IMG/VR virus record: IMGVR_UViG_3300008113_000108
Location: 57,418-121,417 of that record
DNA length: 64,000 nucleotides
Source: a virus
Reading direction: 5' to 3' (one strand)
Shown here: positions 18,583 through 60,300 of the stretch, one piece after another
How positions within the stretch are numbered: position 1 is the stretch's first letter
Layout of the letters: each line of letters opens with the position of its first letter
Notes under the pieces: model-generated
What the model saw: the letters and a program-made list of their open reading frames with translations, nothing else
What the model was told of the DNA's origin: nothing
Databases searched by the model: none
Translations under genes and position numbers: made by a program

Positions 18583-19270
18583 TCTACATAACTTCTTCAA
18601 ACATTTTGACGAAAAGAATCCAAAGCATGTTGCTGCGGTAGCACAGTTTGAAGAAGTATTATTAAAAAAAGTCCCAGAAGAAATGGATGATGTTTCTACA
18701 TGGGTTAAAACATTTAGAAGTAAACCAGAAAAAAAGGCACTAAATATTCTGGATAATTTTCCATGGTTCCCTCAAACAGATAATTACAGAGATGCTAACC
18801 GTACTTGTAACAGTTCTAGTTGTGCTATGTGTCTTGAGTATTTTAAACCAGGCACGTTAAAAGGACCAAAAGGAGACGATGCTTATGTTCAGAAAGTCTT
18901 CTCAATCGGAGATACCACAGATCACTTGGTACAAACAAGGGTTCTTGCTTCTTATGGAATTAAGTCGAGTTTCAGCTATTCCCTTTCTTTTGCTGATCTT
19001 GATCGAGAGCTTGCCGCTGGTAGACCTGTTGTTATTGGTATTCTTCATAGGGGCACTCTATCTGCTCCCACGGGAGGACACATGGTAGTTGTGATTGGCC
19101 GCACACCTGCTGGAGATTACATCGTAAATGACCCCTACGGTAGCCTCAACGACGGCTATACTGGTCCAGTGACCAATGGTAAAGGAGCAGTCTATCGACG
19201 ATCTGATCTAGCTCGTAGATGGTGTCCAGGTGGCAAGGATGGCTGGGGTAGGGTTTTCCAGGCACCATAA
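18569..19270 (+). CDS. peptidase C39-like protein, putative endolysin
   Basis: QTDN...TCNSSSCAM (Cys), GGHMVVVIG (His), VNDPYG (Asp). Confidence 0.8.
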   Translation: MAKIDLHNFFKHFDEKNPKHVAAVAQFEEVLLKKVPEEMDDVSTWVKTFRSKPEKKALNILDNFPWFPQTDNYRDANRTCNSSSCAMCLEYFKPGTLKGPKGDDAYVQKVFSIGDTTDHLVQTRVLASYGIKSSFSYSLSFADLDRELAAGRPVVIGILHRGTLSAPTGGHMVVVIGRTPAGDYIVNDPYGSLNDGYTGPVTNGKGAVYRRSDLARRWCPGGKDGWGRVFQAP

Positions 19271-19293
19271 GTTTTATAAATATCCCAAACACC

Positions 19294-19322
19294 TTGACAA
19301 CCAAATAGAAGTGTGTTAAGAT
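19294..19322 (+). promoter_or_regulatory. sigma70-type promoter for ncRNA/tRNA-Tyr
   Basis: TTGACA-17-TAAGAT with extended TG. Confidence 0.65.
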
Positions 19323-19328
19323 TGTTTT

Positions 19329-19435
19329 AAGTCTGAATCCAGTAAACCTTTTGGCATCTCCGCCACGAGTCCTGCTGGAAATATGTTACTCGCTATGCAG
19401 ATAGCATAGAAGGAGGCATTACTGGTTTCAGGCTT
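19329..19435 (+). ncRNA. unassigned structured RNA (long stem plus four-way junction)
   Basis: AAGTCTGAATCCAGTAA pairs with TTACTGGTTTCAGGCTT; inner helices CCTT/AAGG, TGGC/GCCA, CGAGT/ACTCG, CTATGC/GCATAG. Confidence 0.65.
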
Positions 19436-19438
19436 ATC

Positions 19439-19521
19439 GGGTAGGTGTCCGAGTGGTTTAAGGAACCTGACTGTAAATCAGGCGGCTCTGTCCAACGCTG
19501 GTTCAAATCCAGCCCTGCCCA
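19439..19521 (+). tRNA. tRNA-Tyr(GTA)
   Basis: cloverleaf, CT-GTA-AA loop, long variable arm, GTTCAAATC. Confidence 0.95.
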
Positions 19522-19642
19522 TTGACAACACCAATTTATATTATAAGCGATTGAGTTGTTGTCATTTTGTGCCCAGGAGATTGCCTCTTGAAAAAGAGGT
19601 GTACCCCTTTCTCTATTGGGATGTAGAGTTCTATTCAAATTA

Positions 19643-20005
19643 ATGCGTTTTATTTCAACACTTCTTATCGCTTCAACACTTCTTGGATTTACGCCCCAAA
19701 AAGCTGAAGCAGCCAGCGGATGTTCAATGGCTTCTCATTATGGTGTCGGTGATGGATATCACGGTCAAACCACCGCTAACGGTGAAAGATACAATGCATA
19801 TGGTAAATCAGTAGCACATAAATGGCTTCCATTTGGTACTAGATTACGAGTGACAAATCAACGAAATGGAAAATCAGTTATTGTGCGAGTGAATGATAGA
19901 GGTCCATATGTCGGAGGACGAGACCTCGATCTGTCCTACGGGGCATTCTCTTCAATTGCACACCCAGGACAGGGAGTGGCGAGTGTCTGTTACTCTAGAG
20001 TTTAA
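19643..20005 (+). CDS. rlpA: RlpA-like lytic transglycosylase (DPBB domain) with signal peptide
   Basis: ASHYG...TANGE...AHKWLPFGT...VRVNDRGPY...DLS. Confidence 0.9.
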   Translation: MRFISTLLIASTLLGFTPQKAEAASGCSMASHYGVGDGYHGQTTANGERYNAYGKSVAHKWLPFGTRLRVTNQRNGKSVIVRVNDRGPYVGGRDLDLSYGAFSSIAHPGQGVASVCYSRV

Positions 20006-20042
20006 CAGATAAATATAGGGGAGACTTGATCTCCCCTTCCTC

Positions 20043-20441
20043 ATGAATAAGAAGCAGGTAATAAATTTTGCAATCATTGGTGTAATACTTACATCATCAG
20101 TAGGTGTACTTACAAAATGTACAGGGATTGATGAGATACATTGGTATGACCTGATTGACGAAATTCAAAGAAAGTATTTTCCAAACAGTCAATTAAACGA
20201 CTATATAATAAAGGATCCAGCACTCCTTGACCGTCGTGTTAAGAGAGATGTCGATAAAGCGATCAGTGATTATGAACGCTTGACAGGAGATGATGGACGT
20301 GTTAGACTTCCATCACCACGATACTCAGAAAAGCCCATAGATAGTTCTGTGTGCTATACTGATGAGTGTCGAGCACTAGGAGGAGAAATCCGACTTTGCT
20401 CTCCATGGGTTCCAGACTGCCCCTTGACAAACCGAGAATAG
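20043..20441 (+). CDS. hypothetical membrane-anchored protein
   Basis: N-terminal TM helix; C-terminal Cys cluster. Confidence 0.7.
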   Translation: MNKKQVINFAIIGVILTSSVGVLTKCTGIDEIHWYDLIDEIQRKYFPNSQLNDYIIKDPALLDRRVKRDVDKAISDYERLTGDDGRVRLPSPRYSEKPIDSSVCYTDECRALGGEIRLCSPWVPDCPLTNRE

Positions 20442-20452
20442 TCTGGTACAAT
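20424..20452 (+). promoter_or_regulatory. sigma70-type promoter of tRNA array
   Basis: TTGACA-17-TACAAT with extended TG. Confidence 0.7.
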
Positions 20453-20464
20453 TAACTGGCAAAT

Positions 20465-20538
20465 GACTCAGTAGCTCAGTTGGATAGAGCATCTGCCTTC
20501 TAAGCAGTTGGTCGGGGGTTCAAGTCCCTCCTGAGTCG
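20465..20538 (+). tRNA. tRNA-Arg(TCT)
   Basis: GACTCAG/CTGAGTC acceptor, CT-TCT-AA loop, GTTCAAGT. Confidence 0.95.
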
Positions 20539-20567
20539 TGACAACTGAATATTTAAGGTATGCACCA

Positions 20568-20822
20568 ATGTACAAAATTAGATGCAAAGATTGCAACATG
20601 GAGTTGCATGTAACTCAACCAAATCGTGGTCAATCATGTAAGTGTCCCAATAGAGCTTACATACGACTTGACAATAACGGATTACCTGTTATAGTAGCTG
20701 ATGACATGACCAGAATTGAAATGGTAAGTGGATTTACAAAACCAAAAGAGAAACAAAAGTCTGTTGAACATTTTGATGTTCCCAAGAGACGAATACGCAG
20801 ACTAGATTACGAAGTTCGTTAA
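20568..20822 (+). CDS. small Zn-ribbon-like hypothetical protein
   Basis: CKDC...CKC. Confidence 0.7.
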   Translation: MYKIRCKDCNMELHVTQPNRGQSCKCPNRAYIRLDNNGLPVIVADDMTRIEMVSGFTKPKEKQKSVEHFDVPKRRIRRLDYEVR

Positions 20823-20831
20823 TTTAGTCTA

Positions 20832-20903
20832 GGGAGTATAGCTTAATGGTTAGAGCGGGCTCCTTATAAGGGCTTAGTCTGGGTTCAACTCCCAGTATTC
20901 CCA
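20832..20903 (+). tRNA. tRNA-Ile(TAT)
   Basis: GGGAGTA/TATTCCC acceptor, CT-TAT-AA loop, GTTCAACT. Confidence 0.9.
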
Positions 20904-20926
20904 TTAGGAATCGACGGGTTCCTAAA

Positions 20927-21108
20927 GAATGTGGCAGAACAATCCTTGTGGTTACTCACGGGATAATGCAATAGGTTAGGGGTGGTGCCCGCTGTATCGT
21001 TGAGAAATCAAAGGTATAGAACTTCCGACCAAGAAGAATCTAGGTTCCTGGAAATACGGTTGTCAGTGTAACCATCCAGGTTGTGGGTATGACAGATTCC
21101 CACCATTC
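20927..21108 (+). ncRNA. manA-like RNA motif
   Basis: GAATG/CATTC closing stem, multiple hairpins, GGTGGTGCCCGCTG core, kissing TGTCA/TGACA; tRNA-adjacent as described for manA; family assignment from memory. Confidence 0.65.
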
Positions 21109-21120
21109 ACCCAAAACATT

Positions 21121-21168
21121 CATCATCAGAGGTTGCCAGTTTGCAGATGATGTCTCAGTAATAACTGG
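21121..21168 (+). ncRNA. H-type pseudoknot RNA element
   Basis: CATCATC/GATGATG stem; loop CCAGTT pairs with downstream AACTGG. Confidence 0.5.
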
Positions 21169-21173
21169 AATTG

Positions 21174-21233
21174 GGAAGAATAATGAAGCCGCTTGATTTT
21201 AAATCAAGATTAAACATGCATCTTATTCTTCCA
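21174..21233 (+). ncRNA. stalked hairpin with anticodon-arm-like tip
   Basis: GGAAGAATAA/TTATTCTTCC stem enclosing CTTGA-TTTTAAA-TCAAG. Confidence 0.4.
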
Positions 21234-21237
21234 TCAA

Positions 21238-21313
21238 GGTCTCATCGTCTAACTGGTCAGGACGACGCCCTTTCAAGGCGTAAATTCGGGTTCAATCCCC
21301 GATGAGACTACCA
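21238..21313 (+). tRNA. tRNA-Glu(TTC)
   Basis: cloverleaf, CT-TTC-AA loop, encoded CCA. Confidence 0.95.
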
Positions 21314-21387
21314 CGGGCATTAGCTCAGTTTGGTAGAGCGCCGTCTTTGGGAGGCGGATGCCGAAGGTTCAAATCCTTCATGCCCGA
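21314..21387 (+). tRNA. tRNA-Pro(TGG)
   Basis: CGGGCAT/ATGCCCG acceptor, TT-TGG-GA loop. Confidence 0.95.
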
Positions 21388-21424
21388 CTTACCGTTACCA
21401 GAACTTTTTCTGACGGTATATCGT

Positions 21425-21488
21425 AGATGAACTGCAAAGTCAGTATACGGATAGAGGTTAGGTCCCTGGTTTCACACCTAATCCATCT
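21425..21488 (+). ncRNA. unassigned three-way-junction RNA
   Basis: AGATG/CATCT, ACTG/CAGT, TTAGGT/ACCTAA; carries ACGGAT and CCCTGGT. Confidence 0.45.
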
Positions 21489-21561
21489 GGGGGATTAGCT
21501 CAATTGGTAGAGCAGCGCCTTTGCAAGGCGAAGGTTAGGAGTTCAAATCTCCTATTCTCCA
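21489..21561 (+). tRNA. tRNA-Ala(TGC)
   Basis: cloverleaf, TT-TGC-AA loop, G3:U70 pair. Confidence 0.95.
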
Positions 21562-21581
21562 TTCCCACTATATTATTTTTT

Positions 21582-21826
21582 ATGGGAGACTCAGTTAAGT
21601 ATCAAATTGAAAAGGCTGAACATGCACTTCGTTCTGCACTTGAACTAGGTGCAATGCATGAAGATCCTTATACTCTTCAGCTTTACAAAAGCTAGGTTAC
21701 ATTATTATCATGGGTAAAACTCAACATGTAGTAGAAGACTTTAACGTAGAAGGTGGAATTCCTTTTGCCACAAATTATCCTAATGTTGAGGAAGTTAATT
21801 CTCCAGACATTAATCTAATTACCTAA
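21582..21826 (+). pseudogene. hypothetical gene apparently split by a frameshift near 21677
   Basis: MGDSVKYQ...EDPYTL in one frame continues plausibly as SALQKLGY...NLIT* in the -1 frame. Confidence 0.45.
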
Positions 21827-21880
21827 ATATCATCAATACCTCTCAAGCCTATCTAAAGAAGCTCAAACAGAGAGGTCACT

Positions 21881-21951
21881 GCGAATGTGGTGTAGCGGTA
21901 ACATCCCATCCTTCCAAGTTGGTGTCACGGGTTCGATCCCCGTCATTCGCT
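21881..21951 (+). tRNA. tRNA-Gly(TCC)
   Basis: GCGAATG/CATTCGC acceptor, CT-TCC-AA loop. Confidence 0.93.
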
Positions 21952-21972
21952 TCCTCAATCCTTGAGGTTATT

Positions 21973-22128
21973 ATGTCACTTATTTCACAAAAAGATAGGG
22001 ATCTTGCTATTGAAGCATTAGACTTCTATCTCTTCAATAAAAAATTTGATTTTACTGAAGAAAAAAGAATGGAAGTTAATGCTCTCATTAACTGGATTAA
22101 ACTAGAAAAAACTAAACATGAAAATTAA
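21973..22128 (+). CDS. small hypothetical protein
   Basis: GAGG RBS then MSLISQKDR... Confidence 0.7.
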   Translation: MSLISQKDRDLAIEALDFYLFNKKFDFTEEKRMEVNALINWIKLEKTKHEN

Positions 22129-22282
22129 TCTTTGGTATTGTGAACATATGAAACAATGGAGATGGACTCTTGTAGATGATCATCGTCCAGTTGTTAAAAT
22201 GGAGTCTGGTCAACAACCAGATCTTCGGGTAGCAATGAATGACATTGCAAACACTGTTGAATATATGTTAAGTCATCAGTGA
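22118..22282 (+). CDS. small hypothetical protein (54 aa, MKINLWYC...WRWTL)
   Basis: read by hand; overlaps previous stop. Confidence 0.7.
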   Translation: MKINLWYCEHMKQWRWTLVDDHRPVVKMESGQQPDLRVAMNDIANTVEYMLSHQ

Positions 22283-22288
22283 TTTCTT

Positions 22289-22360
22289 TGGGGTGTAGTT
22301 CAGCGGTAGAACGCTTGACTGTTAATCAAGTTGTCGCAGGTTCGATCCCTGCCACCCCAG
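22289..22360 (+). tRNA. tRNA-Asn(GTT)
   Basis: TGGGGTG/CACCCCA acceptor, CT-GTT-AA loop. Confidence 0.95.
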
Positions 22361-22382
22361 TTACTACAATTCGTAGTAAACT

Positions 22383-22463
22383 GTAGGAACCAAAACCTCT
22401 TCCTGGTCACTGGCTGGGTAATGTAAAGAGGGAGGCTTAAGGTGATGCTCTCCCCTCCTACCA
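22383..22463 (+). ncRNA. unassigned structured RNA
   Basis: GTAGGA/TCCTAC closing stem, CCTCTT/AAGAGG helix, GC-rich island in AT-rich context. Confidence 0.45.
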
Positions 22464-22491
22464 CTAAATACATGTATCGAAGGATACAGTC

Positions 22492-22752
22492 ATGAAATAT
22501 AAGATCTCATCGAACTATTGTTTTTACAATAACGAAATTGTTGAGATGTATTTCATCAATAATGTTCCATTTACATTTGAAGAACTTCCTCAAATAATGC
22601 AGGATGATCCCTACATTCAAATTGAAGCTTCAAACAATGAAGAGTATAGTCCAGAAGATCTATATAAAACTTCATTCTATTTGATAGACGAAGAATGTCA
22701 TCCTTGTTTATTCCCAGTGGACTTAGAAAACCCAGAAGATATGCCTGAGTAA
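22492..22752 (+). CDS. hypothetical protein
   Basis: 86-aa ORF, AAGGA RBS, TAAATA upstream. Confidence 0.75.
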   Translation: MKYKISSNYCFYNNEIVEMYFINNVPFTFEELPQIMQDDPYIQIEASNNEEYSPEDLYKTSFYLIDEECHPCLFPVDLENPEDMPE

Positions 22753-22791
22753 TTTGTAAATACTATAAATAGTTACAAATTACTTTCTAGT

Positions 22792-23148
22792 ATGAAAACT
22801 TGTTCTAAGTGTGGTATAGAAAAACCATTGACAGAATACCACTCTGCTGGTATTATAGATGGCAAAAGATACCTTCGTGGAGAATGTAAAGTTTGCCAAA
22901 AGAAGGTAGTCAAAAAAAGAAACAATTCTATCCGTGAAGACTACATTGAATGGAAAAAAACTCTCAAGTGTAATAGATGTGGATTTGATGATTATCGTGC
23001 TCTTCAATTTCATCATGAGAGAGACAAAGAATATAATATAGCAGAAATGCTTCGTTCTGGATTTTCTCTTGAAAAGATTAAATTTGAAGCAGAGAAATGT
23101 AAAGTTCTTTGTGCTAATTGTCATCAGATTCATCATTCACGCCTCTAA
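22792..23148 (+). mobile_element. HNH homing endonuclease gene
   Basis: CSKC..CKVC Zn finger; CNRC...LQFHH...LCANCHQIHH. Confidence 0.85.
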
Positions 23149-23211
23149 AGCATTGTGGTGATGCACCGCTCTTGTAAAGCGGAGACGACAGTTCAATTCT
23201 GTCTAGAGGCT
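23141..23211 (+). tRNA. tRNA-Thr(TGT)
   Basis: GCCTCTA/TAGAGGC acceptor, CT-TGT-AA loop. Confidence 0.92.
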
Positions 23212-23232
23212 TTGTATGCTAGGATAGCTACT

Positions 23233-23442
23233 ATGTATGAAGACCTTACCACCTTTGAAAAACAACTAGCTCAATTTGGAGATAGAGTCCAAGTTATTGT
23301 TGGACTTGAAGTTGGAGGAAAGCTTCATGCAGATGAAGCCTACAAACAGATTAAAGATCTTGTAAAGGATCTTAAAAAACTTCGTAAGAGTGAATTAAAG
23401 CATGGCAACGATCTCGACAATTCAAACTTTGGATTCCAGTGA
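23233..23442 (+). CDS. conserved cyanophage hypothetical protein
   Basis: FGDRVQVIVGLEVGGKL...EAYKQIK; AGGA RBS. Confidence 0.75.
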   Translation: MYEDLTTFEKQLAQFGDRVQVIVGLEVGGKLHADEAYKQIKDLVKDLKKLRKSELKHGNDLDNSNFGFQ

Positions 23443-23998
23443 AGAAGATCCTGGATTTGAAATTACTCATTTGTCATTCCGAAAGAGAACATCTGAAGGC
23501 ATATATGGTGGTCCAGTAGATTACTACATTGGCAACATCGTATTTCGTTTGACGAATGAAGAAGCGAAAGGTCGCATGGAGTATATTCTATCAGAGAATG
23601 AAAGGGTTCGTGTGGCACCAGATGAAGAACTTCATGACAAATATTATGATGGATTAAGTTTTAATCTTTCAGATGCTTGTAAAGAAGAAGAAGCAGTAGA
23701 AGATGAAAACGGAGAAAAATTTTATCCAGTTAAAATTACGAACAAGCATAATTTAGAAGACGAGGATGTATTCATCTGGGCATATCGTCGTAACATGGAT
23801 CCTATGCATAGTTTTGTAGAATACATTGAGAAGTTTGATTGTTACAGAATGCACGAATACTTCCAGGACACCCCTGTAGTTCGTGGTATAATACAGTATC
23901 TCCAAGACATGAAAGATGGCAAACCCAATCCAAGTCGTACAGTCTATCATGAGCAGTTTCTCACCACGCTCACAAACCTCTGTTGGTGGTGGGACTAG
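23402..23998 (+). CDS. hypothetical protein
   Basis: 198-aa ORF ending LCWWWD. Confidence 0.75.
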   Translation: MATISTIQTLDSSEEDPGFEITHLSFRKRTSEGIYGGPVDYYIGNIVFRLTNEEAKGRMEYILSENERVRVAPDEELHDKYYDGLSFNLSDACKEEEAVEDENGEKFYPVKITNKHNLEDEDVFIWAYRRNMDPMHSFVEYIEKFDCYRMHEYFQDTPVVRGIIQYLQDMKDGKPNPSRTVYHEQFLTTLTNLCWWWD

Positions 23999-24122
23999 GC
24001 AGTGCTCAAAATGTCACATTGAATACCCCCTTGACAAAGACCACTACCAAGTGGTAAAATACTTTCGTTCTGGATTTTCATATTATTGCAATGAATGCAA
24101 TAAACCGAAGCCCAGAGACTAG
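23949..24122 (+). CDS. small Zn-finger protein (HNH-associated type), start uncertain
   Basis: CSKC...YYCNEC. Confidence 0.5.
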   Translation: MSSFSPRSQTSVGGGTRQCSKCHIEYPLDKDHYQVVKYFRSGFSYYCNECNKPKPRD

Positions 24123-24138
24123 CCAACTAAATATACTG

Positions 24139-24180
24139 AGACACGGATGGTCTATAACAGCACTGGTCGGGAGCAACCCC
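24139..24180 (+). ncRNA. CGGA-loop/CUGGU RNA module, copy A
   Basis: AGAC-ACGGATG-GTCT, A-rich linker, GCACTGGTC, GGG-AGCAA-CCC. Confidence 0.5.
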
Positions 24181-24191
24181 CTTTAATTTCT

Positions 24192-24389
24192 ATGAAAAAT
24201 ACCCAATACTGTTCACTCAAGTTATTAAGTATCTGCACTGAAATTGAAAGTGTAATTAACACACTTAAACAAATTCAGGACCGTATGGACCTGAAAAATT
24301 ATGTTAAAATTCAGGAAACAATTAAAATACTTGATGAACACAAACACTATATTTGGAAAATTTATACTGATATAGAGGTCTCGGAATGA
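24192..24389 (+). CDS. hypothetical protein
   Basis: 65-aa ORF between RNA modules. Confidence 0.55.
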   Translation: MKNTQYCSLKLLSICTEIESVINTLKQIQDRMDLKNYVKIQETIKILDEHKHYIWKIYTDIEVSE

Positions 24390-24425
24390 CTTAAAAACTT
24401 GCCCTGGTGGAGTCAAGTATGACCC
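24376..24425 (+). ncRNA. CGGA-loop/CUGGU RNA module, copy B
   Basis: AGGTC-TCGGAAT-GACTT, A-rich linker, GCCCTGGTGG, GTC-AAGTAT-GAC. Confidence 0.5.
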
Positions 24426-24431
24426 AATTTA

Positions 24432-24538
24432 GTCCTCGTCGGATTGGACATTAAATATGCCGACTGGTGCGGATGAAGAGTTTTTGACTCTGCCGAGTTT
24501 CCAGTTTTCTCGTAATCAAAACTGGTGGCGAGCCTGCA
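24432..24538 (+). ncRNA. wcaG-like RNA motif
   Basis: two UGGYG elements (CTGGTGCGG, GTGGCGAGCCTG); pseudoknot CGAG/CTCG with CCAGTTTT/AAAACTGG; family assignment from memory. Confidence 0.7.
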
Positions 24539-24584
24539 AAGGGGTTGACAACCCCAACTACTCCTGCTATAGTAGGAGTTTCAT

Positions 24585-24654
24585 GGAAGTGAAGCCAACT
24601 GGAACGGCACGGAGACAATCCATACAGTAGTTGGTTCGATCCCAACCACTTCCC
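24585..24654 (+). tRNA. tRNA-like RNA with degenerate anticodon arm
   Basis: GGAAGTG/CACTTCC acceptor, GCC/GGC D arm, GTTGG-TTCGATC-CCAAC T arm, anticodon arm only GGA-GACAA-TCC. Confidence 0.65.
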
Positions 24655-24691
24655 AAATATAAATAAAATCTGTAGTTAATCATTTAAAATT

Positions 24692-25573
24692 ATGATGATT
24701 CGTTCATTTATTGCTGCTGGTGTTGCTGCTGCTTCTATTGCTGCTCCTGCCATGGCACAAGTCACCAGTGTTTCACAATTGCGTGACGTTCAACCAACCG
24801 AATGGTCATACCAGGCTATTTCTAACCTAGTATCTCGTTATGGTTGTGTTGCTGGTTTCCCTGATGGTACTTTCCGTCCTGGTGAACCAGCTACTCGTGC
24901 TCAGCTTGCTGCACTAACCAATGCATGTCTGGATCGTATTAGCGAATTCCAAACTGCTGCAGATGCACAACTAGCTGCTGCTCTACGTGCTGAGTTTGCT
25001 AAGGAACTCGGTGCTACCAATGCCCGTGTAAGTGCTCTAGAAGTAGCTGCTGCTCAAAAAGCTCAGGGTGTTGGCAACTATCTAGGTGTTGGTGTTCTTC
25101 TCAATCAGCAAGGTGTTGCTGGCAACGGTTATAGTGCTCAGCGTACTATTTCTGGTGCTACTGTTCAGGCACGTTATGCTGTGAAGAACTTTACCAACCT
25201 GAATGCTGTTTCAGTTCGTCCCTATGCTAGCTTCGTAGGTTCTCCTGCTGGTCAGATTGGTTCTGGTGGTGGTGCTCTTGTTTCATATGATTGGAGCATT
25301 TCCCGTGCTAAGTCTGGTGTAAGTCGTGCTAACATCTATACTGGTGTTGGTTATCAGATCCCCTTTGTAAACAACACTGCTGCTAATTATCAGTCTGCTG
25401 TTGGCAACCGTGGTCAAGTTGTTCTTGCTCTTGGCGTAGAAGGTCGTATCACCAACTCACTAGTTGGTTTTGCTGATCTCAAGTTTCCTACCACCAATGC
25501 TGCTAACAGCTATGGTGCTACCAACGGAACCTATTCACCTGTGTTCACCACGGGTCTGGGATTCAAGTTCTGA
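24692..25573 (+). CDS. SLH-domain outer-membrane protein (cyanobacterial porin-like N-terminus, beta-barrel C-terminus)
   Basis: signal peptide, QVTSVSQLRDVQPTEWSYQA...YGCVAGFPDGTFR...TRAQ, terminal GLGFKF. Confidence 0.85.
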   Translation: MMIRSFIAAGVAAASIAAPAMAQVTSVSQLRDVQPTEWSYQAISNLVSRYGCVAGFPDGTFRPGEPATRAQLAALTNACLDRISEFQTAADAQLAAALRAEFAKELGATNARVSALEVAAAQKAQGVGNYLGVGVLLNQQGVAGNGYSAQRTISGATVQARYAVKNFTNLNAVSVRPYASFVGSPAGQIGSGGGALVSYDWSISRAKSGVSRANIYTGVGYQIPFVNNTAANYQSAVGNRGQVVLALGVEGRITNSLVGFADLKFPTTNAANSYGATNGTYSPVFTTGLGFKF

Positions 25574-30162: not shown

Positions 30163-30196
30163 TGATATATAATAAGTAACCTTTGGTTACTTTTTT

Positions 30197-30283
30197 GGAG
30201 GGGCAATCCGATTGGCGACGGAACCTGTCTTGAAAACAGTTGAGGTGTTAAAGCCCTTGGGGGTTCGACTCCCCCTCCCTCCG
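30197..30283 (+). tRNA. tRNA-Ser(TGA)
   Basis: GGAGGGG/TCCCTCC acceptor, CT-TGA-AA loop, long variable arm. Confidence 0.95.
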
Positions 30284-30300
30284 TTGTCCGTTATAATTTT

Positions 30301-57300: not shown

Positions 57301-60300
57301 CAATTACTAGAAGACCAACTGGAATCACTCCTTCTGCTGCATTTACAACTTCATTCATTGAAGCTGTAAATAACTTCGATAAGGAGACCAGAGTAACCTC
57401 CAACGTAAACTACCTATATCCTTCAATCAACGAAGAAGGTCCTACTTATGATGTAAGAAGAATCTGGAACCCACCACAAACAGATTCTCGTGTACTTGTA
57501 GAGCCAATTGCTGCAGGTAAGAGAGTTAAGGATCTATCCGTACCTAACGCTAAGTATTACAGAGGCGGTTCTACACCATTTGCAGATATTCCTGCAATGA
57601 CCTCTGTAACTGCAGAAGCAGTACATCGTCTTGTACAATCTCTTGATCTCAGATATGCACAGTCAACCACTGCATCAACCTCAAGAGTTGTAGTTGCTCC
57701 AGTTCTATCATGGGATAGCCGTGCTGGTGCAAATGAATATACTACTTCAGAAGTAAATATCTATGGTACTGGTTCTTTCCGTTATGGTGCAAATGGAACC
57801 AGACAAAGCATTCCTACAACTGCATCACCAAACGTATTTGGTATTGATGCAGAAGCTTCAGATAGAAGAATTCCAGTTGTAGCTGCTGGCGCTTCATTCA
57901 CTGCTCCATCTTCATCTAATTCAGATAGCATCAATAGTGCTGCACCAACAATTCCACTCTACAGACCATCCATCCTACGTGCATCTTCACACACCTGGGA
58001 ATATATCGGTTTAGGTTCTGGTAACTATTCAACTGGTTTCCCAAATCTGCAGACAAGAGTTCTCAAGAACTACGAACAGTTCATTGCACAGGGTTATGAA
58101 AACTCTGGTGGTTTCGTTGCTTCATCTGGTACAAACTCTAACGGCGACTTCTACATTGGAAACCAAGTTGTTCAGGCAGGTGGTACATCAACAGTAACTC
58201 TAAACGTACCTAAAGTACGTAAGTCTTCTGAGTCCAACTATGTTGATATCACTAACCTAGAGAACAGAATTTCTAACGCTGTTGTCAACGTAACTGCTGC
58301 AATTGGTAGAAATTCATCTTCACAGAATGCTCTAAAGGCACTATCAAACTTCTTCAACACTGCTAAGCTAAGTGTTACTGACCGTGCAACCATTCAGAGC
58401 TTGATTGTCAATGACAGACTATTCATTGCAAACACAAGAATCAACAATGGTTCAAACTTCCCAGAAGCAAACACCGAGGCATTTGGTTTCGTTAAGGCAG
58501 CAAGACCAGAGAAGACTGGTTTCATCTCAACTGATACCAATGACAGACTCTATGTTTCACCTAAGTTCCTCGATGCTTGGAGAATCAAGAGACAGCTAGT
58601 TTCAGCTTCTAACATTACTCTAGATAACAACAGAATTTATCTACAGCCACTAAGCAGAACTCTACTCGATAGTGCTTCAACTTCAACTTCAACTGGAATT
58701 ACAACTTCAACTTCAACTCTAACTGTAAAAGAATCTGCAGGTATTCCTACCTATGGTGTTCTTGATATTGACATGTCACTCAAGTATGTTGAAGTTGGTG
58801 ATTATCAAGTAGATGGAAGCAACAGAATCTATCTAAATCCAAGAATTAATGTTAACCTAAACTATACTACTATTGATTATACTTCAAATATCATCACTCT
58901 CAATGCAAACCAAAACTACATTGGAAGACAATCATATCTAGAAAACGTTCTAGGAACATCTGGATATAACTCTGTAATTAAGCATTGGTCCAGCCCAATT
59001 GATGATGGTGCAAGTGCAAGTGAGAAGGATATTAAGTATCTACGCTCAAATCTAACTCAGAACTTCAGTGTAAGTGCTGCAGGAAACCCAACTCCAGAAT
59101 CCCCAGTAAATCTATTCATCAGCACAACTGATTGGCCATCTTGGCCAGATCGTGGTGCAGTAACTCTAAGAGAATATCCAAAGAATGGTTCTTACAGATA
59201 TTCAACTTATGTTTACTACAAGGGAGCTACTGGTCAGTTAATTCTTGTCAGAAAGGTTGCAAACGCTTCTGGAAATGATACTGGACATACCTATAACGTA
59301 ACATATAATAATGGTTATGCTGGTATTCCTTCCAAGAACGTATTCTTCTCTGGTTGTACAACCACCGTATCCTTTGCTGATAGATGGGCAAGGGAAGAGC
59401 CATTCATTCCATCAGTTGAGTCAATTTCAGAAGATATCGACCTAGAATCTGCAACTCTATACACAGTTCCTGAAAAGTCAGTTGGTTATACTGGAGATAT
59501 TGATGACACCTTCATTAACAATAGCCTACCAAACCCATTCAGCTCCAAGGCTCTAGGTGTCAACCTACAGAACAGACAAGCTGTTAAGAAGTTTGCTCCA
59601 CTGACAACATTTGGTCAAGTACAAACATGGTGTGAGACTTCAGGATTCAACGTCAACGATAACGTTGAACTTCTAATGAAGCCTGGTTACTATAAACTAG
59701 ATGGTGCTTCATTCCCATGTAGAATTACAATTAATGGTACTGGTTTACAAAAGAGCAGCGTATTTGCTGGTAAAGAGCAGACTGGAACCTCACAAGGTAG
59801 AATGGGTGGTTATCTAGAAACCAGCACCAAGAGAGGAGATAGCATTTACTTCTATCGTGCCCCATCATTTGGGGATCAGTGGGGCAACAACACAGATAGA
59901 CTTTATACAACTGTAAGTGGTGGACTAACTTCTAAGGGTGGATTTGATCTTTCTAATGTTCACTTCCTAGGTCTAAATGATGCAGTAATCAAGAATGAAA
60001 TTCTCGATGAAGCATATTCAACTGATTCACTAATTTCTGAAGCAAGAAAGGCAGTTAGAAAGGCATATTACATTAAGAATACCAGCAACTTCCCAAATAC
60101 AACTACAACTGATGGAATTGCAGGAGCACTAACTTTCACTGCAAATACCACTGGTGGTCAAGGTAAAGCTACAATTAGCTACTATCTAAACAGTGATGAC
60201 ATCATGGTAGCTGCTCTAGGAGCTGCAACTGATGGTGATATCAACACTGCTGATAAGACAACTTCTCGCTACATGATTATTACCATTGAAGCGAATAAGT

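Follow-up and report, generated by a model that had tools for sequence, protein, structure and literature searches.

A modular array of tRNA genes, small open reading frames and conserved folded RNAs in a T4-like freshwater cyanomyovirus

What occupies the spacers between the transfer RNA (tRNA) genes of a phage? The question is raised by positions 19,329 to 24,654 of a 64,000-nucleotide (nt) stretch of virus DNA (hereafter the window; positions 57,418 to 121,417 of IMG/VR record IMGVR_UViG_3300008113_000108), for which an original prediction, made from the letters of the sequence, had proposed a phage RNA operon whose tRNAs punctuate a long transcript into small effector RNAs. We consider it fairly probable that this region is a modular array of tRNAs, small open reading frames (ORFs) and folded RNAs, that the RNAs abutting tRNAs are freed by tRNA processing, that one of them, manA, is joined at its ends, and that another, an abiF-like RNA, is a decoy.

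The source is a T4-like freshwater cyanomyovirus, and the window is part of a 121-kb record estimated to be 66% complete. The nearest isolate is S-CREM1, an estuarine T4-like cyanomyovirus of the Kyanoviridae, at 73-77% identity in patches; megablast against isolates gave no close DNA relative at 80% query cover or more, and a distant DNA search gave patchy matches only, except for S-CREM1 and S-PM2. The phage psbA is nearest to Cyanobium/Synechococcus freshwater genomes (91-93%), and the DNA of the stretch is found mostly in freshwater metagenomes. Using a 198-amino-acid (aa) protein (23402-23998) as the query, we obtained 67 IMG/VR loci (protein identity 63-85%), across which nhmmer recovered homologues of nearly all spacers. 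Pairs were counted in distinct sequences with at least 80% profile cover, identical duplicates and partial matches being dropped; structures were written from the alignments, and shuffles (500) and slid structures served as the two controls.

We found at least one conserved element in each of the eight non-coding spacers of 50 nt or more, and all 12 positions flagged by the original prediction fall in conserved elements (Table 1). Its figure of about ten RNAs holds in that the RNAs are real, but they make up about nine modules. Positions 24139 and 24376 mark two copies of one motif (GH), and unit B (19570-19632) had not been listed. The claim that the spacers contain structured RNAs was upheld by the covariation check, which gave compensatory changes in X, D2, F, GH, B and the abiF-like RNA; for each of these, none of the 500 shuffles reached the observed covariation score and double-changed cells, and pairing dropped to 20-70% in the slid controls. 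Foldability as a mark of the spacers was not borne out: 10 spacers averaged a minimum free energy (MFE) z of -1.69, and 22 pieces of coding DNA from the region averaged -1.10 (p = 0.087, Mann-Whitney), and the sole thermodynamic standout is unit A (z = -4.87; 0 of 200 shuffles fold as well). GC enrichment is present but modest (0.35-0.48 in spacers vs a coding mean of 0.36). The structured RNAs are marked by conservation and covariation, not by folding energy.

At gathering level, Rfam recognises manA and wcaG in the region, and a laxer scan adds abiF and nothing else credible; GOLLD/ROOL models gave no match at gathering level in the window and none at E ≤ 5 in 19000-25000. The expectation that most of the RNAs belong to no assignable family was right for at least five uncatalogued motifs (X, D2, F, GH and B), unit C and a tRNA mimic, and wrong for the three Rfam families.

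Counting a module as abutting when a tRNA end or start lies within 5 nt, over distinct contexts, we found that the modules fall into two classes. The abutting ones are manA (11/13), the abiF-like RNA (15/15), D1 (13/13), D2 (25/30), X (21/28), F (7/16) and C2 (3/4). The others are GH (1/72), wcaG (0/35), B (0/27) and the tRNA mimic (0/8), and these lie beside ORF starts or behind promoter-like sites of their own. In the window the gaps are 0 nt for tRNA-Ile/manA, tRNA-Pro/D1 and D2/tRNA-Ala, 2 nt for unit A/tRNA-Tyr, 3 nt for abiF-like/tRNA-Gly and 5 nt for C2/tRNA-Glu. That several spacers sit close to tRNA ends was correctly seen, with manA, the abiF-like RNA, X, D1, D2, C2 and, in relatives, F at 0-5 nt. 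Punctuation by tRNAs applies to some modules, with support at the RNA level for manA only, and does not extend to GH, wcaG, B and the tRNA mimic; the region is a mosaic with non-abutting modules beside ORFs and promoters, not one uniform operon of effector RNAs.

The RNA-level support concerns manA. The window's copy matches the full RF01745 model above its gathering score and hence belongs to that family. It does not lie in a 5' untranslated region (UTR): it follows tRNA-Ile and is followed by unit C and tRNA-Glu, and in relatives it lies between two tRNAs, with tRNAs at both borders, 5 nt away or less, in 6 of the 13 contexts. Metatranscriptome X20 was kept as assembled contigs; its library chemistry is given as 'other', RNA libraries may contain DNA, contig depth was not taken as a measure of expression and gaps in RNA-contig cover (e.g. 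22729-23814) were not interpreted. Of its contigs on the stretch, the deepest (record 11; depth 46, length 236 nt) covers 20909-21111 with 11 mismatches and three 1-base deletions (21048, 21052, 21079), and its 31 extra letters read as the start of manA. The 206-nt spacers of four relatives (L070, L082, L083 and L084) have the same 11 mismatches, the same three deletions (one a base off, at 21047) and the same start letters, and in L082 and L083 the tRNA-Ile and tRNA-Pro called by ARAGORN are exactly 206 nt apart. Record 11 gives this length too: 5 clipped letters, 200 aligned letters and one T make 206, to which 30 repeated letters are added to reach 236. We take the 236-nt form to be a closed cycle in a graph of 31-letter words, presumably the word length of the assembly.

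Since the contig agrees with the spacer in length, mismatches and deletion sites, the library contains RNA molecules whose junction links the last base ahead of tRNA-Pro to the first one that follows tRNA-Ile, and this manA-to-manA junction contains no extra letters. Hence, manA is excised at its tRNA borders and its ends are joined, either in vivo or during library preparation. Because even a join made in vitro needs molecules that end exactly at the tRNA borders, tRNA-punctuated excision is supported in both cases. The ends produced by RNase P and RNase Z, 5' phosphate and 3' hydroxyl, are those on which Rnl-type ligases act. In S-CREM1, tRNA-Leu, manA and tRNA-Asn are in direct contact, and this phage has an annotated RNA ligase (PF09414, 100.8 bits); two other manA-bearing records give weak matches (25-27 bits), and RtcB was not found in five manA-bearing phage records. 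Decamers of manA RNA and an icosahedral-like cage of 60 subunits, both formed in vitro, are reported from cryo-electron microscopy (preprint 10.64898/2026.07.01.735769); the accessible text of this preprint still labels manA a putative cis-regulatory element and contains neither 'tRNA' nor 'circular'. We found no account of manA biogenesis in cells, of its tRNA flanking or of its circularity in the literature searched, where the supplements of Weinberg 2010 and 2017 may mention tRNA neighbours.

The abiF-like RNA ends at most 5 nt before tRNA-Gly in all of its contexts, and exactly 3 nt before it in every mapped locus. Its score falls short of the RF03085 gathering score (Table 1); it aligns with 37 of 37 model positions (E = 2.9e-5 on 161 bases) with no non-standard pair flagged, and it has the two nested helices and conserved unpaired letters of the family. 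The syntenic S-CREM1 copy is listed at 51.6 bits in Table 4 of PMC9964418. Abi_2 (PF07751) had no match in the 121-kb phage record, 66% complete, so the association with an abiF gene is lacking there. In comparison, Abi_2 is above cut-off in 15 of 301 sampled genomes of the host family with the nearest psbA, and four of the six Abi_2 loci fetched from this family carry an abiF motif just upstream of the gene (30.7-33.6 bits). Host and phage copies share features that depart from the Rfam consensus: CAAACAG, the flanking letters and, in three relatives, an inserted inner hairpin.

An RNA with two abiF motifs neutralises AbiF (Abi_2, HEPN-related) by direct binding, in cis and in trans, according to the accessible part of 10.1101/2025.04.15.648962; this RNA, RCd22 of Clostridioides difficile, is an AbiF antitoxin and has the same motif as the phage RNA. 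The phage RNA differs from RCd22 in that its motif is single rather than paired, no abiF gene is adjacent and a tRNA follows after 3 nt, and its decoy activity is putative. Since the RNA is an orphan in the phage and has a counterpart upstream of Abi_2 in the likely host family, we read it as a possible antitoxin decoy: judged from sequence, its most likely role is to imitate, in trans, the RNA antitoxin of AbiF abortive-infection systems of the host, which makes it a reasonable candidate for counter-defense. Phages reportedly escape ToxIN in a similar manner, through pseudo-ToxI, a phage-borne look-alike of the antitoxin. Among the effector types that had been imagined, the defense decoy thus has a concrete case, and nothing speaks for ribozymes or protein sponges. 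The Cyanobiaceae motifs directly upstream of Abi_2 (L172-L175) score 30.7-33.6 against a gathering score of 37; these sub-threshold copies indicate that the current Rfam abiF model under-detects this lineage.

Among the uncatalogued abutting motifs, X is a hairpin for which Rfam gave no match at E ≤ 5; its apical stem-loop (loop CAGAUAG) resembles an anticodon arm. Covariance model R1 found 33 X places in 1.07 Mb, all on the + (tRNA) strand. Within the relatives' loci, the abutting copies lie 3' of a Leu-tag or Ser-tga tRNA. An 18-letter X core pattern occurs at more than 118 IMG/VR places among the matches listed; in this wider sample, 39 of 65 usable distinct contexts have X 0-6 nt after tRNAs of 12 kinds, about ten contexts have a D2-like module directly 3' of X, and in five (L194, L203, L214, L231 and L257) the X stem-loop is itself the anticodon arm of a weak tRNA-like gene, all among the matches listed. 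ARAGORN reports these X-bearing genes as Ile(gat) at a relaxed threshold only, and A replaces U before the 'anticodon'. In the window's clade, X is part of the larger unit A, which lies between a promoter-like site and tRNA-Tyr and is kept at full length in six loci.

Further abutting modules have their own conserved features. In unit C (five sequences), both stems stay paired through several double changes in L034 and L054, as read from the alignment. Its C1 loop, CCAGU, is complementary to a conserved downstream ACUGG (region 21114-21237; both invariant in the five sequences), and the two may form a pseudoknot, judging by this complementarity. D1 stands directly 3' of tRNA-Pro in each of its 13 distinct contexts, and the tRNAs directly 5' of which D2 stands are Ala, Pro, Tyr or Ile-gat. 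Motif F, also without an Rfam match at E ≤ 5, ends no more than 5 nt before the tRNA where it abuts one, with a gap of 2-3 nt in mapped loci.

Among the modules that do not abut tRNAs, GH was found by model R3 at 24139 and 24377 only in the 64-kb window; its long-range pair is CG 46 times and UA 15 times in 61 distinct copies, and copies often end 10-15 nt before an ATG. Copy 1 ends 8 nt before the ATG of a 65-aa ORF (24192-24389), which has no Pfam or PHROG match and has GH copies on both sides. The GH-to-GH spacing is constant (193-195 nt) in the window's clade; in other clades GH stands in tandem before wcaG without the ORF. A separate claim of a third GH-type copy in wcaG, with GH as a shortened wcaG 5' domain, was dropped, as R3 with filters off found nothing at 24430-24480 up to E = 10. 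The window's wcaG is a member of RF01761 by full model and score, and it is followed by a conserved stem-loop-plus-promoter module, downstream of which comes tRNA-Met, tRNA-Leu or the tRNA mimic. Unit B, with no Rfam match, always precedes the lipoprotein gene, whose product matches Pfam DPBB_1 at 3e-22.

The tRNA mimic is a 69-nt RNA that ARAGORN does not call and that has no RF00005 match at E ≤ 10 on 601 bases, the tRNA-Sec model giving 14.6 bits (E = 6.3). Its seven distinct sequences are 97% identical and 100% paired, and L016 supplies both of their double changes, a result equalled by 14 of 500 shuffles. Because L016 alone varies, the covariation of the mimic is suggestive only. The mimic is probably a separately promoted, non-decoding tRNA derivative.

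How these modules would be made into RNAs, by which enzymes, with ligation in vivo and to what functions, we infer as follows. At least eight families of conserved folded RNAs, with tRNAs and small ORFs, lie on one strand behind a few early-type promoters. An RNase P cut at the 5' end of the next tRNA would free manA, the abiF-like RNA, X/unit A, C2, D1, D2 and, in relatives, F, and an RNase Z-type enzyme cutting after the preceding tRNA would set the other end. The whole 206-nt manA spacer would thus become a discrete RNA whose ends would then be ligated, possibly by an Rnl2-type RNA ligase such as that of S-CREM1, and this step may precede cage assembly. The abiF-like RNA would mimic the host AbiF antitoxin in trans. 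GH, wcaG and B would be leader or inter-ORF elements rather than tRNA-punctuated products, and the 69-nt tRNA-like RNA would be made from its own promoter and would not decode. A bolder form of this proposal is tentative, and we think it rather doubtful: manA would be an 'RNA capsomer' instead of a riboswitch, cut by RNase P/Z, circularised in the infected cell by a phage Rnl2-type ligase and then assembled into cages, and the island would also deliver the abiF decoy and X anticodon-arm mimics.

Several points weigh against this account. The joined-end evidence is one contig of one run, at the assembly level, and joined ends can arise in library making through a ligase or through template switching of the reverse transcriptase. 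The window's manA precedes unit C, not a tRNA, so its 3' end is undefined here. Rnl1, Rnl2 and RtcB (PF09414, PF09511, PF01139) were not found in the 66%-complete phage record, the PF09511 blank being uninformative in that control genomes gave no match either, and RtcB and PF09414 were not found in four candidate host genomes. The abiF scores of the window copy and the host copies all lie below the Rfam gathering score; Abi_2 is present in none of the four genomes closest by psbA. A search under strict filters in a sample of 151 host-family genomes gave neither X nor F, which is not proof of absence; without a host counterpart, they give no hint of a target. Spacer folding energies are not significantly different from those of coding DNA, one spacer having z = +1.1, and related sequences may beat shuffles without any structure.

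Other explanations must be weighed against the same evidence, and one of them concerns the closed manA contig, which might not be a product made in vivo: a relative could hold manA in tandem in its DNA, or an abundant linear manA could have been joined by ligation or template switching in the library. We regard this as a real possibility, though not as the better explanation. In its favour are the single contig from a single run, the library chemistry given as 'other', the possible presence of DNA in RNA libraries, and the searches for an RNA ligase, which gave none in the fragment and none in the four candidate hosts. However, tandem manA was found neither in the 13 loci nor in 20 places of IMG/VR and metagenome DNA (overlapping sets), the DNA contigs of X2 and X3 (records 4 and 20) run uninterrupted through tRNA-Ile, manA and tRNA-Glu, the junction is free of added letters, and the in vitro version still presupposes ends at tRNA borders. 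The smaller abutting modules could instead serve their tRNAs: X, D1, D2, C2, unit A and perhaps F would be cis leader or trailer elements that aid tRNA folding, offer cleavage sites to RNase P, Z or E or protect the polycistronic precursor, and would be discarded afterward. The portability of D2 and X among tRNA kinds, the D2 helix that reaches position -1 of the tRNA and the failure to find X and F in the 151 host-family genomes are in line with such a role. In contrast, unpaired positions (the X loop and internal loop, the F junction strands) are invariant or nearly so across clades, beyond what a spacer hairpin needs; the use of the X stem-loop as an anticodon arm in five tRNA-like contexts points to a recognised surface; and manA, which forms cages in vitro, and the abiF motif, a protein-binding antitoxin, are left unexplained. 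As an explanation for the whole set we judge it unlikely, though X, D1 and D2 may act solely in cis, in the maturation of their tRNAs.

A third view would make manA, wcaG and by extension the new motifs cis-regulatory leaders or riboswitches of downstream protein genes. Rfam types manA and wcaG as Cis-reg, and Weinberg 2010, as far as its text is accessible, places both in potential 5' UTRs, and both sources treat manA as a cis-regulatory riboswitch candidate; GH, which often stands 10-15 nt before an ATG, and B, which always precedes the DPBB lipoprotein gene, would fit as well. This reading we hold to be distinctly improbable, since manA lies between two tRNAs in 6 of 13 contexts, where there is no ORF for it to control, and is seen as a separate RNA with joined ends, tRNAs and not ORFs lie downstream of the abiF-like RNA, D2 and F, and wcaG precedes a promoter module and then a tRNA or the tRNA mimic. 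Still more improbable, in our view, is that the modules are recombination cassettes at the DNA level (of the PeSL type) together with decaying tRNA fragments, which would shuffle tRNA genes and whose structure would stem from tRNA ancestry instead of selection in RNA. The module order does vary among clades, the stem-loop-plus-promoter unit recurs, and parts of X and of the tRNA mimic resemble tRNA. Compensatory double changes in six motif families nevertheless argue for selection on pairing, 33 of 33 X places lie on the tRNA strand, and 100% pairing in four arms of the mimic is not expected of a decaying pseudogene.

Non-coding RNAs in phage tRNA islands are already known. The T4 tRNA region encodes the small RNAs RNAC and RNAD, whose role is given as unknown in the accessible text of PMC3014915. 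They resemble the RNAs described here as non-tRNA RNAs in a T4-type tRNA region, a likeness of genomic setting only; the present array has many more modules, several of them in families and some with tRNA-border RNA ends or a host counterpart. The RNA-only cages GOLLD and ROOL are phage-borne and 'often near tRNA islands', and tRNAs sometimes lie inside the GOLLD linker (accessible parts of 10.1101/2024.12.08.627333 and PMC5737381). With about 206-210 nt, manA is much shorter than GOLLD/ROOL (580-800 nt or more), and unlike them it occupies the entire spacer between two tRNAs, base for base. The order in S-CREM1 is wcaG, tRNA-Met, tRNA-His, tRNA-Leu, manA, tRNA-Asn, abiF and tRNA-Gly, where tRNA-His is an ARAGORN call and is not annotated. 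Its genome paper (PMC9964418) annotated manA, wcaG and abiF, with glnA, as Rfam hits and cis-regulators and, in its accessible text, is silent on tRNA contact, excision, joined ends, a host AbiF counterpart and uncatalogued motifs.

Ends set by tRNA-processing enzymes on a neighbouring RNA occur in MALAT1/mascRNA and in mitochondrial transcripts, and excision of a tRNA intron followed by circularisation occurs in tRNA-intronic circular RNAs (tricRNAs). These cases are eukaryotic or archaeal and use other ligation enzymes; here, the RNA lies between two phage tRNAs. The literature searched gave no precedent for base-exact tRNA flanking with joined manA ends, for a host counterpart of an orphan abiF or for several covarying uncatalogued motifs. 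'abiF' does not occur in the accessible 2017 main text (PMC5737381), and the Weinberg 2010/2017 supplements may describe it.

The nine tRNAs of the array lie at 19439-23211, and ARAGORN and Rfam agree on them. The small ORFs among them are mostly real (7 of 10 match PHROG families), and Pfam places a DPBB/RlpA-like lipoprotein, DUF7219, a C39-like peptidase and an SLH-domain protein nearby. The stem-loop-plus-promoter module (24540-24580; also in L017, L024, L030 and others) has a G/C stem-loop around the -35 element and a hairpin around the -10 element; in other clades it precedes tRNA-Ser or tRNA-Met, and in the window the tRNA mimic. It resembles the PeSL promoter-terminator cassettes of T4-like phages, in which such promoter/stem-loop cassettes are said to have been described (PMC4122927, PMC2839356).

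Some further observations were made in and beside the array. A 118-aa cysteine-rich ORF (22792-23148) overlaps the first 8 bases of tRNA-Thr (23141-23211); its DNA is similar to S-CAM3 endonuclease genes annotated HNH, and Pfam gives a weak DUF5679 match only. For L016, L035, L048, L069, L045 and other relatives, ARAGORN reports odd anticodons at conserved positions, namely Arg(gcg) or Asn(att) at the position of the window's tRNA-Tyr, and also His(atg) and Pyl(cta); they could represent additional tRNAs of a non-standard or mimic kind. The Ser(tga) tRNA of ARAGORN at 30196-30284 is above the Rfam tRNA-Sec gathering score (49 vs 47 bits), probably an artefact of the long variable arm. RNA contig record 10 of X20 (19524-20047) starts about 3 nt after tRNA-Tyr, upstream of the start expected from the next promoter-like site, and ends past the lipoprotein gene at a terminator-like hairpin (20017-20037); its start near the 3' end of tRNA-Tyr is a weak hint only.

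Table 1. Features of the array in window coordinates, with the positions flagged in the original prediction and the pair counts
Feature	Position	Strand	Basis	Flagged position	Pair counts (distinct sequences; paired; pairs changed on both sides)
Sigma-70-like promoter site before unit A, TTGACA-17-TAAGAT	19294-19322	+	10/12 consensus matches; consensus match only		
Unit A, long basal stem and junction, 5' leader of tRNA-Tyr, holds X	19329-19436	+	MFE z	19329	
Motif X, three-helix hairpin of about 40 nt	19382-19421	+	Covariance model R1, 57.5 bits		19 of 33 places; 92.6%; 7
tRNA-Tyr(gta)	19439-19521	+	ARAGORN, Rfam		
Unit B, structured 5' leader of the DPBB/RlpA-like lipoprotein gene (19643-20005)	19570-19632	+	Pair counts		25 of 33; 97.3%; 8
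tRNA-Arg(tct), promoter-like site ahead at 20424-20452 (consensus scan)	20464-20539	+	ARAGORN		
tRNA-Ile(tat)	20832-20903	+	ARAGORN, Rfam		
manA, from the first base after tRNA-Ile	20904-21113	+	RF01745, 105.6 bits (gathering 55.2), model 1-192 of 192	20927	
Unit C, hairpins C1 (21121-21153) and C2 (21174-21233), between manA and tRNA-Glu	21121-21233	+	Alignment	21121, 21174	
tRNA-Glu(ttc) and tRNA-Pro(tgg), back to back	21238-21388	+	ARAGORN		
D1 hairpin, from the first base after tRNA-Pro	21389-21420	+	Alignment, little covariation	21390	
D2 leader helix, ends at position -1 of tRNA-Ala	21450-21487	+	Pair counts	21425	23 of 39; 99.6%; 4
tRNA-Ala(tgc)	21488-21562	+	ARAGORN		
abiF-motif RNA, no abiF gene in the phage fragment	21839-21876	+	RF03085, 35.4 bits (gathering 37)	21838	14; 99.2%; 4
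tRNA-Gly(tcc)	21881-21951	+	ARAGORN		
tRNA-Asn(gtt)	22288-22361	+	ARAGORN		
Motif F, three-helix RNA	22383-22464	+	Pair counts	22383	15 of 20; 95.6%; 12
tRNA-Thr(tgt)	23141-23211	+	ARAGORN		
GH copy 1	24139-24189	+	Model R3, 57.9 bits	24139	61 of 92 (GH); 98.4%; 4
GH copy 2, overlaps the stop of the 65-aa ORF and reaches wcaG	24377-24432	+	Model R3, 53 bits	24376	
wcaG	24430-24539	+	RF01761, 48.2 bits (gathering 42), model 1-98 of 98	24432	
Promoter-like site within the conserved stem-loop-plus-promoter module, TTGACA-17-TATAGT	24545-24573	+	11/12 consensus matches		
tRNA-like RNA (tRNA mimic), 69 nt	24585-24653	+	Acceptor, D and T arms; middle arm with 3-bp stem and 5-nt loop	24585	

For the biology of these phages, the status of manA since 2010 has been that of an orphan 'riboswitch candidate'; its exact tRNA flanking together with the joined-end RNA contig gives it a testable route of biogenesis and links it to GOLLD and ROOL, the other cage-forming phage RNAs found close to tRNA islands. 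For an RNA anti-defense decoy in cyanophages, the orphan abiF-motif RNA offers a concrete candidate that would be cheap to test. Material for new RNA families is provided by X (more than 118 IMG/VR places listed), GH (61 distinct copies) and the covarying D2, F and B. If the capsomer proposal were true, the tRNA island would also serve as a source from which counter-defense RNAs are launched.

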